A stretch of 63,104 nt of DNA, filler included. It is 7 parts of 7 records of this genome, joined end to end, with 100 filler letters (N's around TTAATTAATTAA, not from the genome) between each part and the next. Parts side by side here need not be neighbours in the genome. Positions count along the whole stretch, not along the records: positions 58,606 to 63,104 come from SRR20825010_1590; 6 more parts are not named here. One strand, given 5' to 3'. Shown here piece by piece: positions 8,336 through 63,104 of the stretch. The translations under genes and the position numbers were made by a program. Position 1 is the first letter of the stretch, and every line of letters begins with the position of its first letter. Below the pieces are notes generated by a model. It was not told where the DNA came from. It did no database searches and saw nothing but the letters and a program-made list of their open reading frames with translations.

Positions 8336-8435
8336 NNNNNNNNNNNNNNNNNNNNNNNNNNNNNNNNNNNNNNNNNNNNTTAATTAATTAANNNNNNNNN
8401 NNNNNNNNNNNNNNNNNNNNNNNNNNNNNNNNNNN
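8336..8435. other. Artificial contig spacer
   Basis: 44 N + TTAATTAATTAA (stop in all six frames) + 44 N. Confidence 0.99.
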
Positions 8436-14442: not shown

Positions 14443-14542
14443 NNNNNNNNNNNNNNNNNNNNNNNNNNNNNNNNNNNNNNNNNNNNTTAATTAATTAANN
14501 NNNNNNNNNNNNNNNNNNNNNNNNNNNNNNNNNNNNNNNNNN
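14443..14542. other. Artificial contig spacer
   Basis: N44-TTAATTAATTAA-N44. Confidence 0.99.
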
Positions 14543-35249: not shown

Positions 35250-35349
35250 NNNNNNNNNNNNNNNNNNNNNNNNNNNNNNNNNNNNNNNNNNNNTTAATTA
35301 ATTAANNNNNNNNNNNNNNNNNNNNNNNNNNNNNNNNNNNNNNNNNNNN
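35250..35349. other. Artificial contig spacer
   Basis: N44-TTAATTAATTAA-N44. Confidence 0.99.
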
Positions 35350-39979: not shown

Positions 39980-40079
39980 NNNNNNNNNNNNNNNNNNNNN
40001 NNNNNNNNNNNNNNNNNNNNNNNTTAATTAATTAANNNNNNNNNNNNNNNNNNNNNNNNNNNNNNNNNNNNNNNNNNNN
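39980..40079. other. Artificial contig spacer
   Basis: N44-TTAATTAATTAA-N44. Confidence 0.99.
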
Positions 40080-52619: not shown

Positions 52620-52719
52620 NNNNNNNNNNNNNNNNNNNNNNNNNNNNNNNNNNNNNNNNNNNNTTAATTAATTAANNNNNNNNNNNNNNNNNNNNNNNNN
52701 NNNNNNNNNNNNNNNNNNN
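52620..52719. other. Artificial contig spacer
   Basis: N44-TTAATTAATTAA-N44. Confidence 0.99.
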
Positions 52720-58505: not shown

Positions 58506-58605
58506 NNNNNNNNNNNNNNNNNNNNNNNNNNNNNNNNNNNNNNNNNNNNTTAATTAATTAANNNNNNNNNNNNNNNNNNNNNNNNNNNNNNNNNNNNNNN
58601 NNNNN
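58506..58605. other. Artificial contig spacer
   Basis: N44-TTAATTAATTAA-N44. Confidence 0.99.
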
Positions 58606-58606
58606 C

Positions 58607-58678
58607 TGGCATGCCTATCGCGGCCTGATCGACACTGAAAAGGCCGAAGCCCGACGCCTGCGGCGTGTGGTACCATAA
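58607..58678 (+). CDS. C-terminal fragment of a probable DUF2189 membrane protein
   Basis: Own translation WHAYRGLIDTEKAEARRLRRVVP*; WHAYR is the typical DUF2189 C-terminal motif. Confidence 0.55.
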   Translation, partial: WHAYRGLIDTEKAEARRLRRVVP

Positions 58679-58765
58679 CACCCGCCAAATAGCATTTCAC
58701 ATCGGCGCAAGGATGCCTGAAACCAGCCTTGCGCCTTTGTTTTTGCCAAAAGAAACCCGGCAAAA

Positions 58766-58779
58766 CTAACCCGTGTTAG
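58766..58779 (+). promoter_or_regulatory. Putative Crp/Fnr box CTAAC-CCGT-GTTAG
   Basis: Perfect 5-4-5 palindrome; dyad 29.5 bp upstream of the T (58802) of TGcTAAACC. Confidence 0.65.
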
Positions 58780-58858
58780 CCAACCCGGATATCCCATGTG
58801 CTAAACCCTTCGATAGCTTGGCGGAAGTTCCGCCGGGCATTGTTTAAGGCACACGCGC

Positions 58859-59239
58859 ATGACACAGAAAACTGTCGAAGCCGACAAAACGGCCACCTCA
58901 ATTCCCGCGCCCCTTCTCGAAGTTTTTAACGGACCGCTTGCATCGACGGTTAAAAACAATTCCGAAGCCATCGCCAATAGCATGCAGGTCGTTCCTGCAA
59001 AGCTTGGGGAATTTGTCGCAGGCCGGATCAAGGCCAATGTACAGCTTTACCAGACGTGTCAGGAATGTACGGATTGGTCGGACCTGATGGATGCGCAGCA
59101 AACCTGGCTAAAAGACACCAATGCTGCATTCGCCGATCAGACCAATACCATCATCGCGATGACCCAGTCCCTTTTTGGCCAGATCGAGGTCCCCAAAGGC
59201 AACCCGGAAACAAAAGTTTCCGATAAAGCGCACAAATAA
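58859..59239 (+). CDS. Phasin-like helical protein
   Basis: EF...RI..N......CTDWSDLMDAQQTWL pattern resembles the phasin family; 126 aa. Confidence 0.55.
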   Translation: MTQKTVEADKTATSIPAPLLEVFNGPLASTVKNNSEAIANSMQVVPAKLGEFVAGRIKANVQLYQTCQECTDWSDLMDAQQTWLKDTNAAFADQTNTIIAMTQSLFGQIEVPKGNPETKVSDKAHK

Positions 59240-59291
59240 GATCTGACAACATTGACGACCTTCAATGTTACAGACATCGGAACGCATCACG

Positions 59292-59333
59292 AAAAAGGGC
59301 GGGATTTTGCGCGATGCAGGATCTCCGCCCCTT
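59292..59333. terminator. Putative terminator between convergent genes
   Basis: AAAAAGGGCGGGAT...ATCTCCGCCCTT imperfect hairpin with a minus-strand T-tract. Confidence 0.5.
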
Positions 59334-59393
59334 CATGTCGGGATATTGAATATTTCCGCCTGAAAAGCATTTGCCGAAAACCGTTACGCCCGA

Positions 59394-59633
59394 CTAAGCG
59401 GGATGCCGTACCGAATTGCCACCTTTGATGATTGCTTTGATCAGATCATGAACGGCCTGATGATGGTCGTTCACTTCCCCCCCGGGTTCGCCGGTGACAT
59501 GCCCATTGGCTGCATCTTCAAGAATACCGATAATATCCTTGTCCGTCATAAGGCCCATATCTCCCAGACAAAGCAAGAGAGACTCACAAATCGAAAGGGC
59601 AGCAGCACCTTGAACTTTGTATTTATCATCCAT
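59394..59633 (-). CDS. Small hypothetical protein (79 aa)
   Basis: AAGGA RBS; amphipathic helices; AALSICESLLL and GGNSVR motifs. Confidence 0.75.
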   Translation of the reverse strand: MDDKYKVQGAAALSICESLLLCLGDMGLMTDKDIIGILEDAANGHVTGEPGGEVNDHHQAVHDLIKAIIKGGNSVRHPA

Positions 59634-59722
59634 GTTGCTTATCCTTTAAATAATCTTGGATTTATCGCATCTATGTTGCGAAATATGACCAAAAGATTTA
59701 TCATCATGTTTCACAACCAGCG

Positions 59723-59736
59723 TAAACACAGATCAG
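59723..59736. promoter_or_regulatory. Putative Crp/Fnr box shared by divergent promoters (CTGAT-CTGT-GTTTA on -)
   Basis: Identical 14-mer to 62091-62104; dyad 29.5 bp from TGaTAAATC (minus, T at 59700) and from TAATTT (plus, T at 59759). Confidence 0.65.
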
Positions 59737-59777
59737 GATTTTGAAAATATTGGCATAATAATTTTTATTATTTTGTC

Positions 59778-60527
59778 ATGAAAGAAAAATACATGATTTC
59801 GTCTACAAAATTTGTTGAAAAAAAGCTGAAATCTTTCATCGATCTGACAGATAATGAAATTTCTACATTTTCTTCGATGCCCAGCAGATTGATCACACTT
59901 TCTGCCGGGCGCGAAATTGTTCACGAAGGACAGCGGGCGCACAATGCCTTTATCCTGCTTGATGGCTGGGTCGCGTCTTACAAACTGCTGCCCGATGGCA
60001 CGCGCCAGATCATCGATTTTCAAATTCCTGGCGACTTCCTCGGCTTGCGCAGCCTGTTGCTGCGGACCTCGGATCACAGCTTCGAAGCGATAACCGAAAT
60101 CACAATCGCCGAAGTATCAGCCCAGAACATAAAATCCACCTTCGCGAAATCCCCCCGTCTGGCAAGTGCCATTCTCTGGGCAGCGTCGCGCGATGAGGCG
60201 ATGGTTGTCGAACATCTGGTAAATATCGGCCGCCGGTCTGCGATTGTGCGCACGGCCCACTTCCTGCTGGAACTGGGGACCAGATTGAATCTGATCGGGG
60301 TCGGCACCCCAAACAGCTACCCCTGCCCGCTGTCACAATACCTTCTGGCCGATGCCTTGGGCCTAAGCGCGATCCATATCAATCGCGTTCTGCGTCAATT
60401 GCGCGAACAAAAACTGATGACCTTCCAGAAGGGGATCGTGCATTTCAACAATCTTGAAAAGCTGATCGCCCTTGCCGATTTTCAGGTCGGCTACCTTGAT
60501 CAGGACGAGCCCATCATCCGGCATTGA
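59778..60527 (+). CDS. Crp/Fnr family transcriptional regulator
   Basis: cNMP-binding fold (G.RQI..F.IPGDFLG), R.AHFLLE, HTH LSQYLLADALGLSAIHINRVL; no FNR Cys cluster. Confidence 0.93.
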   Translation: MKEKYMISSTKFVEKKLKSFIDLTDNEISTFSSMPSRLITLSAGREIVHEGQRAHNAFILLDGWVASYKLLPDGTRQIIDFQIPGDFLGLRSLLLRTSDHSFEAITEITIAEVSAQNIKSTFAKSPRLASAILWAASRDEAMVVEHLVNIGRRSAIVRTAHFLLELGTRLNLIGVGTPNSYPCPLSQYLLADALGLSAIHINRVLRQLREQKLMTFQKGIVHFNNLEKLIALADFQVGYLDQDEPIIRH

Positions 60528-60562
60528 TCCGGCCATACCGGGCATCGATCACCCCCGTACGA

Positions 60563-60781
60563 TCAAAAAACCTTGCCTGCCATCCACGCATCGACATCCT
60601 TTGTCGCCTGCTCTTCGGACAGGCTGGCGCGGACTTTGATCATATTGCAAAACTGCCCCTTGGTCCGGATCGTCGACAGATCATAATGCGTCAGGAATTT
60701 CCAATGCTTCTGCGCATCCCTGAGGTAACCCTTTTTGCGGGTCACGGCTTCGGCTGTTTCGCCACCCTGGAAACCAAACAT
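60563..60781 (-). CDS. Small CsbD/YjbJ-like protein
   Basis: CAGGAGAG RBS; W.FLT..DL..I....Q....IK.R..LS.EQA.KDVD.W resembles CsbD helices. Confidence 0.6.
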   Translation of the reverse strand: MFGFQGGETAEAVTRKKGYLRDAQKHWKFLTHYDLSTIRTKGQFCNMIKVRASLSEEQATKDVDAWMAGKVF

Positions 60782-60827
60782 TTACACTCTCCTGTTTGTG
60801 ATATTATTGAATTTCAAAATGAAATGG

Positions 60828-60841
60828 ATAATCCAAATCAA
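60828..60841 (-). promoter_or_regulatory. Putative Crp/Fnr box TTGAT-TTGG-ATTAT
   Basis: Dyad 28.5 bp upstream of TAATAT (60806-60801), upstream of the CsbD-like gene. Confidence 0.5.
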
Positions 60842-60912
60842 CCGGGCAAACCGGGCGATATCGCCCGGCCCGTTGATCGGATCAAAATGCCTTGGTCGCA
60901 GATATCGGGATG

Positions 60913-61293
60913 TCAGCGAATAACCATCGCAAAGGGTGATCTGGCAGATGAAACCCGGCTTGCACGGTGTATTTCGCCCACCAAATGCAATTCCTGTTCG
61001 GAAATATCGGCATCAAGAAGGGCCAGCTCTTCTTCCGCGATCTCGTCCATCACCAACGCAAGATCAAGTTCTTCAAGGCTGACCAGGATCGAAAGCCGCG
61101 CCGCATCGGAAGTCGGCGTCCCATTGATATGCAAAAGCGACAGGACCGGCTGATAGGTGACAAAACTATCGCCCTCCGCCAGCTCTTCGTATGTCTCTAC
61201 ACAATATGTACCGGCTGGCAGATTTCGTGTACGGCCTGTCAAATTGAACGGATGCTTGAAACGGTAAATATTGCTGATCGTGCGGACACTCAT
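60913..61293 (-). CDS. Hypothetical protein, paralog of 62417-62782
   Basis: AGGAGG RBS; F.HPF.L.G....PAG.Y.VET.EE..EG.SFV.Y motif. Confidence 0.8.
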   Translation of the reverse strand: MSVRTISNIYRFKHPFNLTGRTRNLPAGTYCVETYEELAEGDSFVTYQPVLSLLHINGTPTSDAARLSILVSLEELDLALVMDEIAEEELALLDADISEQELHLVGEIHRASRVSSARSPFAMVIR

Positions 61294-61347
61294 GGAAGCC
61301 TCCTGTGTACTCAGGTGAAATCCTGCTGTTGCGTCATGGCCTGTTTG

Positions 61348-61380
61348 AAAAAAACCATCCCGACGAAACCGCCGGGATGG
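61348..61380 (-). terminator. Intrinsic terminator after the 67-aa gene
   Basis: Minus strand CCATCCCGGCG-GTTT-CGTCGGGATGG-TTTTTTT. Confidence 0.8.
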
Positions 61381-61410
61381 AAGATGTCAATAGGGGTAGG
61401 ACATCAAAGT

Positions 61411-61614
61411 TCAGTTCAAAGCTTTGGTCGCTGCGTCGAGCGATTTGATACATTCAGGATCGTTTTTGGCCTTTTGGGCCGTTTCGGCAGCCTGATAATG
61501 CTTCAACGCCGCTTCTTTTTTCGGACCGGAAGGTGCCTTGTCCCAGGCAGCCTTGACAGTCTTCATTTTCTCGGCAGCGGACTGCCCTGAACTCTGTTGT
61601 TCTTTCATAGCCAT
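61411..61614 (-). CDS. Small Ala/Lys-rich helical hypothetical protein (67 aa)
   Basis: GAGGT RBS, own terminator, helical-bundle-like sequence AAWDKAPSGPKKEAALKHYQAAE. Confidence 0.75.
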   Translation of the reverse strand: MAMKEQQSSGQSAAEKMKTVKAAWDKAPSGPKKEAALKHYQAAETAQKAKNDPECIKSLDAATKALN

Positions 61615-61777
61615 TGACCTCAGGTATTGGTTTCGTCAAGTCAACATAGGGGGGACTTGCCGGGGGTATCGGGGGGTCCGATTATGGGCGACAAGGATTG
61701 CCCTGACAAAACCGAGTTTGAATAACTGAACATTCAGTATTCATGATTACTTTTAGCCGAACTACCAAGGCAAAGAA

Positions 61778-61791
61778 CTAACCTGTGTTTG
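61778..61791. promoter_or_regulatory. Putative Crp/Fnr box CTAAC-CTGT-GTTTG
   Basis: Dyad 29.5 bp from the minus-strand GCTAAAAG (T at 61755). Confidence 0.6.
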
Positions 61792-61822
61792 TATCCGGCA
61801 AAGTTTTTATCTTGGCATTACA

Positions 61823-61993
61823 TTAGAAAAACAGCTTCACATCATTTGTGAATGATACGCCCGCAATAACGACAATCATCACAAGTATGATCGAACATGG
61901 GTAATAGCCCCACCTGCGGCTAAAGGACCAGATTGGCATGGTCACGACAAATATCGATCCCAAAATCATCAGTATCAGGAATGTAAGCGACAT
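61823..61993 (-). CDS. DUF3309 family small membrane protein
   Basis: TM-P.W.FSR.WGYYP-TM signature; GAGGG RBS before MSLTF. Confidence 0.8.
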   Translation of the reverse strand: MSLTFLILMILGSIFVVTMPIWSFSRRWGYYPCSIILVMIVVIAGVSFTNDVKLFF

Positions 61994-62090
61994 GATGCCC
62001 TCGTTCAATCGAGTGGCCGCCAAGATAAAGAACCTATCCAAACGGAAAAAATTCATTCTTTCATGATTATACAAATTTGAAACCCGTGCA

Positions 62091-62104
62091 CTGATCTGTG
62101 TTTA
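62091..62104. promoter_or_regulatory. Putative Crp/Fnr box CTGAT-CTGT-GTTTA
   Basis: Exact copy of the 59723 box; dyad 29.5 bp from TAGAAC (plus, T at 62127) and 28.5 bp from TAATCA (minus, T at 62069). Confidence 0.65.
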
Positions 62105-62416
62105 TTTATCCATCAAAAAACAAAAATAGAACATTCGATAAAATAACCTGATCAGCGTACAATAATATTCAAAACAAAATGAAACATGTGAAATGAAATG
62201 AAAACATCTTCGAACAGGATACTTCACATATCCACGGCACAATCAGAATTTCCGCTTGAAGGCTGTCCGTTCAGCACACCGGTTCCCTTGCCAAAAAAAG
62301 AACCGGACGAAGGATATCCGCTGCGCTCGTAAAATGATTTTGCCCTCCCCGCCGAATGTCCCGCGCACCATCGGACAGGGTCATTGCCGGGGCCACCGCA
62401 AAAGGAGCCTCATGAC

Positions 62417-62782
62417 ATGACGACCATCAGAACAATCCAGAAAACATACGCCTTCCACCACCCTTTCCACCTGAAAGGCTTCGATCACAGCTTCCCGGCG
62501 GGCTCGTACAATGTTGAAACCGAAGAAGAAATGCTCGAAGGGCTGTCTTTCGTTTCCTACAAGCGGACCGGAACCACACTGCATATGATCCGCACGGCAA
62601 CCACCATCATTGAACCAAAAATATTCAATATCGACCCGCGCGATTTCGACCTTGCCGTGCTTCGTGATCGCCATCAATGTGCAGAGGAAACCGAATTGTC
62701 AGACGCGCCATCGATGATGTCGCGCGTCGACAAACTGGCAATTGAAAGAGGCGAAAACGAAGGCATGACGCCCCGTAAATAG
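62417..62782 (+). CDS. Hypothetical protein, paralog of 60913-61293
   Basis: AAGGAG RBS; FHHPFHLKG...PAGSYNVETEEEMLEGLSFVSY; C-terminal AIERGENEGM. Confidence 0.8.
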   Translation: MTTIRTIQKTYAFHHPFHLKGFDHSFPAGSYNVETEEEMLEGLSFVSYKRTGTTLHMIRTATTIIEPKIFNIDPRDFDLAVLRDRHQCAEETELSDAPSMMSRVDKLAIERGENEGMTPRK

Positions 62783-62827
62783 GGACACAAAGGCACCATC
62801 TGCCGCGCCTCTGAATACGCCCAAAAG

Positions 62828-62863
62828 GCAAAACACCGCCCAGTGATACGGGCGGTGTTTTGC
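62828..62863. terminator. Bidirectional terminator
   Basis: GCAAAACACCGCCC-8nt-GGGCGGTGTTTTGC between convergent genes. Confidence 0.8.
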
Positions 62864-62899
62864 TTTGTGCAGGCCATAGTCGAAACCGGCATTTATAAT

Positions 62900-63104
62900 C
62901 TAGCTGGTCGCCGATGCCCGACGATCCGATGGGCGTGCGGGCCGCACAAGGAACGTCCCCGCCACCACACAAGCCAGTGTCACGATCAGTTCCGGCCGCA
63001 ATGTTTCCCCCAGAAGCAACGTGCCCCCCGCAAGACTGGTCAGCGCCATGACATAACCGATCTGGCTGAGGAATACCGGGCCTGCCACACGCTGCAATTC
63101 GAAA
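62900..63104 (-). CDS. DMT/EamA family transporter, C-terminal fragment
   Basis: AGPVFLSQIGYV...G..LLGE.L terminal EamA motif. Confidence 0.8.
   Translation of the reverse strand, partial: FELQRVAGPVFLSQIGYVMALTSLAGGTLLLGETLRPELIVTLACVVAGTFLVRPARPSDRRASATS

Follow-up and report, generated by a model that had tools for sequence, protein, structure and literature searches.

Regulators of the Crp/Fnr superfamily are among the best understood bacterial activators. CRP binds the box TGTGA-N6-TCACA, and FixK2, which carries a redox-sensitive cysteine (Cys183), acts as a class II-type activator. The consensus TTGANCNNGATCAANG is given for FnrN/FixK in one paper (PMC4999443), and another gives FnrL sites as TTGAT-N4-ATCAA (PMC2908626). 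In this study, we analyzed a 63,104-bp stretch of DNA (hereafter the window), the last piece of which encodes a FixK-like Crp/Fnr regulator (59778-60527, plus strand) from a subfamily that, well studied as the superfamily is, bears generic names only. A preliminary description of the window had proposed that this regulator acts on its own gene and on small-protein genes nearby, using a variant FNR-type box placed at class II distance. The observation is real, largely as proposed there, and involves no unusual mechanism; the novelty lies in the subfamily and its operator, in a strict pairing of the regulator with a 79-aa protein (p79), and in the group of small proteins that are its candidate targets. 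Neither the subfamily nor the box nor the p79 partner was found described in the literature on the box strings, on Crp/Fnr and small proteins in Rhodobacter, on DUF3309 and the Crp regulon, or on Crp/Fnr motifs and autoregulation in Rhodobacterales.

The locus and its regulator

Seven pieces make up the window (1-63104), and linkers that read N44-TTAATTAATTAA-N44 separate them at 8336-8435, 14443-14542, 35250-35349, 39980-40079, 52620-52719, and 58506-58605. The GC content of the pieces ranges from 0.346 to 0.569 (0.498 for the last piece, 58606-63104), and the window may come from a draft genome or from a bin of mixed origin. Pieces that adjoin in the window are not physically linked to the finding, and the regulon was judged on the 4.5-kb piece 58606-63104. 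This piece is collinear with a locus of Thalassospira xianhensis MCCC 1A02616 (hereafter L001), with 88.6% nucleotide identity over 3.4 kb and 97% identity between the regulator proteins. The regulator, its partner gene, and the boxes considered below are as follows.

59778..60527, plus strand, FixK-like Crp/Fnr regulator with cNMP_binding and HTH_Crp_2 domains
59394..59633, minus strand, p79, 79 aa, divergent from the regulator gene, a predicted three-helix bundle of no known family
58766..58779, box 1, CTAAC-CCGT-GTTAG, a perfect dyad 5' of a 126-aa gene, with TAAACC at 58802 (plus strand) giving TA at +29.5
59723..59736, box 2, TAAAC-ACAG-ATCAG on the plus strand, a candidate operator common to the two divergent promoters of p79 and the regulator, with TAAATC at 59700 (minus strand) and TAATTT at 59759 (plus strand), 29.5 on both sides
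60828..60841, box 3 of the preliminary description, TTGAT-TTGG-ATTAT on the minus strand, probably a chance match
61778..61791, box 4, CTAAC-CTGT-GTTTG (CAAAC-ACAG-GTTAG in gene orientation), with TAAAAG at 61755 (minus strand) 29.5 bp from its center
62091..62104, box 5, CTGAT-CTGT-GTTTA, a 14-mer identical to that of box 2, with TAGAAC at 62127 (plus strand) and TAATCA at 62069 (minus strand)
61381..61394, decayed box 5' of the gene for the 126-aa protein par126, AAGATGTCAATAGG, with two substitutions and a 6-bp deletion relative to L001

Judged from its domains and orthologues, the regulator is a member of a large unnamed FixK-like Crp/Fnr subfamily. Both domains scored above their cut-offs (PF00027, E = 2.1e-15; PF13545, E = 8.3e-12), and the nearest solved structure was that of FixK2 (4I2O, E = 1e-17). 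Its scores against the curated families were below the cut-offs for FixK (64 versus 300 bits), FnrL (44.8 versus 300), Fnr (49.4 versus 228), and CRP (28.7 versus 266), and far below that for FtrB. Source databases name the protein only "Crp/Fnr family transcriptional regulator", and a protein search gave 5867 matches, wider Crp/Fnr relatives among them. The Thalassospira orthologues are 244 aa long, and the real start of the regulator is probably the ATG at 59793.

The regulator contains a single cysteine, C183, which is also the only invariant cysteine among 76 aligned orthologues; the FNR-type cysteine cluster is thus missing, and with it the FNR-type iron-sulfur site. Its recognition helix, near-invariant in the same orthologues, reads LSA(I/V)H(I/V)NRVL (LSAIHINRVL in the window) versus LTLETVSRAL in FixK2. 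At the positions of the E--SR helix with which FixK and FNR read TTGAT, the aligned residues are I/V, H, N, and R; only Arg is kept, and Glu and Ser are replaced, in keeping with a box whose GAT core is retained and whose outer base differs. No clear link was found between the recognition-helix sequence and the box variant, as SAIHINR and SAVHVNR did not track the box type.

A conserved box and partner gene accompany the regulator

One genome per species was scanned with the regulator, which gave 564 relatives, and the best 80 loci (L001 onward) were compared; they belong to Thalassospira (five loci), many Rhodobacterales, some Hyphomicrobiales, and one Oceanicaulis. The motif comparison on orthologous regulator spacers, which the preliminary description had called for, found a box just 5' of the regulator gene in 73 of the 80 loci, 45-130 bp from its start and in one orientation in 71 of the 73. 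The family consensus is CTGAT-N4-A(G/T)CAG, or in extended form (G/A)A-CTGAT-(C)(C/G)A(R)-A(G/T)CAG (written out, CTGATCCAGAGCAG), with the outer C conserved at 94% and the outer G at 100%. Rarer half-sites in the family are CTAAC, CTGAC, CTGAG, GTTAG, ATTAG, and once GTTTA (L006); all half-sites of the window fall in this set except TAAAC and CAAAC. Further boxes of at least 14 bits numbered 95 in the 80 loci versus 3-7 in shuffles, and most lay within 2 kb of the regulator, an approximately 20-fold enrichment.

The p79 gene was present in 79 of the 80 loci and directly divergent from the regulator gene in 77. In two loci (L031 and L041) it lies 1.1-1.8 kb from the regulator, with a family-type box nearby. 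The one locus that lacks it is L003 (Thalassospira sp. HF15), where the upstream region is AT-rich and a crude reading of the N-terminal part contains a stop codon; this locus may be a paralogue or a decaying copy. On the evidence of these loci, the same layout is common to many marine and soil alphaproteobacteria.

Family boxes favor a class II distance to TAnnnT hexamers

A dyad centered near -41.5 would lie 29.5 bp from the first T of the -10 hexamer, and this spacing was found in the family boxes. Across 93 further boxes, 45 of 186 directions had a TA that started exactly 29.5 bp from the dyad center, where other positions averaged 4.4, and 31 of these 45 had T at hexamer position 6 (TAnnnT). 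Read from sequence, this fixed-phase TAnnnT is a class II activation signature, and it is the strongest support for the idea put forward in the preliminary description, the core of which it bears out together with the box in 73 of the 80 loci.

The autoregulatory box displays the spacing on both sides. Toward the regulator, a T run occupies +20.5 to +24.5 and A is found at +30.5 in 71% of loci; toward p79, the bases from 28.5 to 33.5 are T, A (76%), n, n, n, T (67%), with the A at 29.5. This pattern suggests that one dimer is centered approximately 41 bp from both divergent starts. In the window, the seven TA hexamers named in the preliminary description all proved to be at the offsets given there, five directions at 29.5 bp and two at 28.5 bp. 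TA at either offset thus occurs in 7 of 10 box directions with a background of 0.091 per direction in the spacers of the piece (binomial P of approximately 5e-6), where the two offsets were chosen after the fact.

Four boxes of the window exceed chance

The five 14-mers named in the preliminary description were all recovered with their coordinates and strands. Four of them (58766, 59723, 61778, and 62091) are above chance and conserved in L001; the fifth (60828) is neither. The directional pattern CTRAYCYGTGTTWR fits the four (59723 on the minus strand). It has four matches in the 63-kb window, all in the 4.5-kb piece and none in the remaining 58 kb, against 0.30 expected, and none of 100 shuffles reached four or more; this count is circular, as the pattern was derived from those very sites. 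A pattern-free statistic was computed on the 1374 bp of spacers (summed matches to the best three other sites). The box family scored 36, which none of 100 shuffles reached (maximum 35), and a terminator inverted repeat tied with it at 36. This sum-of-matches statistic took the place of an earlier neighbor count (14-mers within two to three mismatches) that did not discriminate. Similar terminator inverted repeats were observed at 62838-62865 (GGGCGGTGTTTTGC / GCAAAACACCGCCC), 3' of the par121 gene, and at 59293-59310 (GCAAAATCCCGCCC), 3' of the 126-aa gene that follows box 1.

Boxes 1 and 2 are identical in L001, and boxes 4 and 5 are islands of conservation among diverged spacers. Box 4 has one change, in the N4 spacer; box 5 reads CTAACTTGAGTTTA (CTAAC-TTGA-GTTTA) in L001, with four changes that include CTGAT to CTAAC, also an accepted half-site. 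Box 2 is found at the same place and in the same orientation as the family box, and 11 of its 14 bases are identical to the box of L023 (CTGACACAGATCAG). The site at 60828 is not conserved in L001 and lies outside the directional motif, and, as approximately five sites matching YTRAY-N4-RTYAR with one mismatch are expected per 4.5 kb by our own arithmetic, it is within chance as a loose dyad; we consider it probably a chance match. Taken exactly, a pattern of the type of the boxes in the preliminary description occurred across the 80 loci only in L001 (two sites) and L070 (one site), so that this exact form is specific to close relatives of the window. The Thalassospira boxes have diverged from the family form, and their scores with the family matrix are low.

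Proposed mechanism and its alternatives

We consider it likely that the FixK-like regulator acts on itself and on neighboring small-protein genes via class II boxes. A regulator dimer would bind dyads of the form CTRAY-N4-RTYAG; located 41.5 bp 5' of the transcription starts, these dyads would replace the -35 element and recruit RNA polymerase to the TAnnnT -10 hexamers. In the window strain, one dimer at box 2 would serve both the p79 gene and the regulator's own gene, and the three other boxes would serve the weakly phasin-like 126-aa gene, the gene for the 67-aa protein p67, and an operon of the genes for p44 (44 aa) and par121 (121 aa), perhaps along with the DUF3309 gene. The association of the box with the regulator and with its targets, as well as the fixed phase of the -10 hexamer, emerges from the comparison of loci; actual binding, activation as opposed to repression, and the places where transcription begins are inferred.

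Several observations weigh against this reading, and some of them would be explained if the four boxes of the window were non-functional, either as a short repeat or as decayed remnants, and only canonical boxes worked in Thalassospira, such as CTGATGTCAATCAG in L001 and CTAAT-N4-ATTAG in L002, L004, and L005. Boxes 2, 4, and 5 each combine one good half with one poor half (GTTTA or GTTTG), and the left half of box 2, TAAAC, differs from CTGAT at four of five positions. With a matrix built from non-Thalassospira boxes, the boxes of the window reach at most 6.6 bits, while unrelated pieces of the window reach 15.8; as the family matrix does not recover them, they stand on position, internal repetition, and conservation in the single close relative L001. 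Only five Thalassospira loci were compared, and the spacer box of L004 and L005 is weak. Most of the -10 candidates of the window have no T at -7, and their surroundings are AT-rich; those of box 5 are not conserved in L001. At approximately 7540-7553 of L001, the canonical CTGATGTCAATCAG lies approximately 93 bp 5' of the par126 orthologue, and its counterpart in the window has decayed, so that par126 may have left the regulon in the window strain. We nevertheless regard loss of function of all four boxes as quite unlikely. Box 2 occupies the family place and shares its right nine bases (ACAGATCAG) with L023, boxes 4 and 5 are conserved amid diverged spacers, box 4 is at the distance typical of the family from p67, TA occurs at 29.5 bp in five of the eight directions of boxes 1, 2, 4, and 5, and the same CTAACCTGTG core recurs in another spacer of L002 and L004.

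The sign of regulation is a separate matter, since a conserved extended -10 element, TGnTAtgcT, precedes the autoregulatory box of the family and also counts against simple activation. On the regulator-facing strand 5' of the box, T(-18.5) G(-17.5) n T(-15.5) A(-14.5) t g c T(-10.5) is conserved family-wide; a start at approximately -3.5 would fall inside the box and imply autorepression, so self-activation by the regulator is not certain. The regulator might then mainly repress, or act both ways, with its own-gene box overlapping the start of a constitutive promoter while p79 and other genes may still be activated. This is possible but on balance unlikely, because the regulator side of the box also carries the T run and the A at +30.5 as at other boxes, the window has no TAnnnT at -15.5, and the sharp TA spike at 29.5 across the 93 other boxes fits activation. 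It is very improbable that another Crp/Fnr protein (an FnrL, FixK, or Dnr-type paralogue) binds the boxes and has the local regulator as just one target, which the preliminary description had raised as a caveat in the form of a genomic FixK or FnrL. The box does have the FNR layout (5-N4-5 with a GAT core), and the Rhodobacter sphaeroides FnrL ChIP sites in PMC2908626 include CTGAT half-sites; however, the outer positions are C and G rather than the T and A of the FnrL sites given there, the box travels with the regulator gene across several orders and is enriched around it, and the half-sites CTAAC and GTTTA of the window differ from TTGAT at two to four of five positions. These observations weaken the caveat.

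Candidate target genes

The genes beside the boxes encode small proteins.

58859..59239, plus strand, weakly phasin-like protein of 126 aa and candidate target of box 1
60563..60781, minus strand, 72-aa protein, weakly YjbJ/CsbD-like, unsupported as a target in the window strain
60913..61293, minus strand, par126, 126 aa, paralogue of par121 by tblastn cross-matches
61411..61614, minus strand, p67, 67 aa, candidate target of box 4
61615..61745, minus strand, structured 5' leader of p67, a short hairpin and U run followed by a long hairpin before the ribosome-binding site
61823..61993, minus strand, small membrane protein of the DUF3309 family (56 aa, with the ATG at 61993), which box 5 may control
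62198..62332, plus strand, p44, a small open reading frame of 44 aa
62417..62782, plus strand, par121, 121 aa, paralogue of par126, without a Pfam or NCBIfam match

The p67 gene, which the preliminary description had also named as a target, was found in 27 loci, mostly just 3' of the regulator; in 19 of 28 copies a box precedes it by 149.5-180.5 bp (170.5 bp in the window). The par126/par121 family, which has no Pfam or NCBIfam model, is present in one to three copies in many loci, often with a box upstream (11 of 17 copies with the par126 query and 16 of 27 with the par121 query). The p44 frame is 64% identical in L001, with differences at third codon positions; it is a real small gene between box 5 and par121, and the two genes probably form an operon, headed by p44, whose promoter would be served by box 5.

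DUF3309 was assigned above its cut-off (E = 1.4e-7; 31.9 versus 22.3), and DUF3309 genes adjoin boxes in L023 and L027. In L001, an insertion of approximately 90 bp separates the DUF3309 start from box 5 (61994-62060 in the window), so their distance is not conserved, and TAATCA is not conserved either; DUF3309 is ambiguous as a target. The names "phasin-like" and "CsbD-like" used in the preliminary description reflect existing matches, both of which are below the curated cut-offs. For the 126-aa protein these were Phasin_2 (E = 0.0053; 17.4 versus 24.9) and TIGR01985 (18.9 versus 99.7), and among the 80 loci its gene was found only in L001. A GC-rich hairpin followed by ATTGTTT at 58816-58838 (plus strand), terminator-like and kept in L001, comes directly after the start predicted from box 1 and ahead of this gene. 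For the 72-aa protein, no Pfam match was found at E of 0.01 or below, and PRK10428 scored 16.2 versus 113 (E = 0.0077). Its proposed control by the box at 60828 was not supported in the window strain, as that site is not conserved and none of five orthologues has a family-type box 5' of the gene. In L002 and L004, CTAACCT[A/G]TGATGT is located approximately 80 bp 5' of the CsbD-like gene, between divergent CsbD-like and par121-like genes (CTAACCTATGATGT in L002 and CTAACCTGTGATGT in L004, the latter matching box 4 of the window at 11 of 14 bases).

Elsewhere among the loci, boxes adjoin an unnamed family of 136-177 aa (16 loci) and genes for DUF3309, DUF883, DUF3185, and DUF1236-SH3 proteins, an OmpA/glycine-zipper lipoprotein, a HisKA_2 kinase, a fatty-acid desaturase, and a zinc alcohol dehydrogenase. 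The identities of these box-bearing genes no more than hint at a stress, hypoxia, or stationary-phase role, as envisaged in the preliminary description. In five loci (L060, L067, L069, L074, and L079), CTGAGGCAGAGCAG or CTGATGCACAGCAG boxes precede an ornithine carbamoyltransferase gene approximately +2.9 to +4.1 kb from the regulator, and a separate box precedes a gene for a DcuC-type carrier in L019, L057, L060, and L079. These are hints that arginine fermentation genes may belong to the regulon or to that of a paralogue.

The p67 leader and the partner protein p79

The preliminary description had missed the strict p79 pairing, the 44-aa gene, the paralogy of par126 and par121, and the structured leader of p67. 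The leader, which also occurs at L034:4350-4462, L076:7000-7122, and elsewhere, folds more stably than its shuffles, with z = -3.8 in the window and -4.4, -7.2, -5.7, and -2.3 in four orthologues. A consensus of 12 sequences contains 30 pairs, 10 of them with compensatory changes; RNAalifold on 18 diverse leaders was weak, giving 8 pairs, versus 30 with the 12-sequence subset. A 45-bp block within 61714-61765 is 100% identical to L001 in an otherwise diverged spacer. Hairpin 1 of the leader lies in this block as the palindrome CTGAA-tg-TTCAG, in the place where relatives have CCGAAT.TCCGG. An Rfam scan of the piece left the p67 leader unmatched. The only match in that scan was an rnk leader below threshold (23.8 versus 55), which we dismissed. 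A covariance model (R1) located the leader in 13 strong and several weak places, none of them in Thalassospira, and did not recover the leaders of the window and L001. Hairpin 1 and its U run are terminator-like, and the leader may be an attenuator or another cis-regulatory RNA.

The p79 protein had no match in Pfam or NCBIfam and fell into "hypothetical protein" clusters only in a protein atlas. Its structure was modeled as a three-helix bundle (pLDDT 79.5), for which a fold search against the PDB gave no match at E of 0.001 or below and only generic helical bundles. A p79 profile found 627 representative relatives (E of 0.001 or below); among the 150 matches listed, lengths ranged from 57 to 158 aa. 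Among the positions that hardly vary are C16, E17, D40, H45, and the GGNSVR at the C terminus. Prediction of a regulator-p79 complex gave a score of 0.01, which weighs neither for nor against binding. A speculative and doubtful extension is that p79 and the regulator are obligate partners, with p79, beyond being the first target, working as a small co-sensor or anti-activator, perhaps via Cys16 and His45 of p79 and Cys183 of the regulator. The pair would then form a two-protein Crp/Fnr switch over a small-protein stress module in many alphaproteobacteria, independent of sigma factors and with the leader RNA as a second layer of control on p67.

The comparison yields an operator consensus, a conserved partner gene, and a promoter geometry to one base pair. 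It also yields target families that are almost all of unknown function, namely, p79, p67, par121/126, the 136-177-aa family, DUF3309, DUF883, DUF3185, and DUF1236. These small proteins become experimentally approachable, as one regulator knockout or inducing condition should shift them together, and carriers of the module include the tractable hosts Rhodobacter capsulatus, Ruegeria, and Paracoccus.

Comparison with known systems

Families such as DUF3309, DUF883, DUF3185, DUF1236, the OmpA/glycine-zipper lipoprotein, the HisKA_2 kinase, and YjbJ/CsbD-like proteins, which are found near the boxes, are typical of the small-protein-rich stress regulons under EcfG, the alphaproteobacterial general stress response system, or under RpoS in E. 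coli. Unlike those regulons, the genes described here would be controlled by a transcription factor and not by a sigma factor. The EcfG-type motif GGAAC-N15-18-CGTT had no match in 58606-63104 and three elsewhere in the window, where 3.5 are expected by chance.

Within the Crp/Fnr superfamily, the predicted promoters resemble those of class II CRP, in which a dimer centered at -41.5 replaces the -35 element; the boxes of the two proteins differ. The regulator shares its superfamily, the dyad geometry, and class II promoters centered at -41.5 with FNR, FnrL, and FnrN, but it does not have their set of four cysteine ligands for a [4Fe-4S] cluster. The closest likeness in structure is to FixK2 of Bradyrhizobium (PDB 4I2O): both have a cNMP-like barrel and HTH without an N-terminal cysteine cluster, both recognize or are predicted to recognize a 5-N4-5 box, and both carry a single cysteine just before the HTH, the invariant cysteine of the regulator aligning two residues before the FixK2 position. 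In contrast to FixK, the box of the regulator ends in C...G instead of T...A, its helix reads A-(V/I)-H-(V/I)-N-R instead of E-T-V-S-R, and the gene stands outside any fixLJ context, paired with p79.

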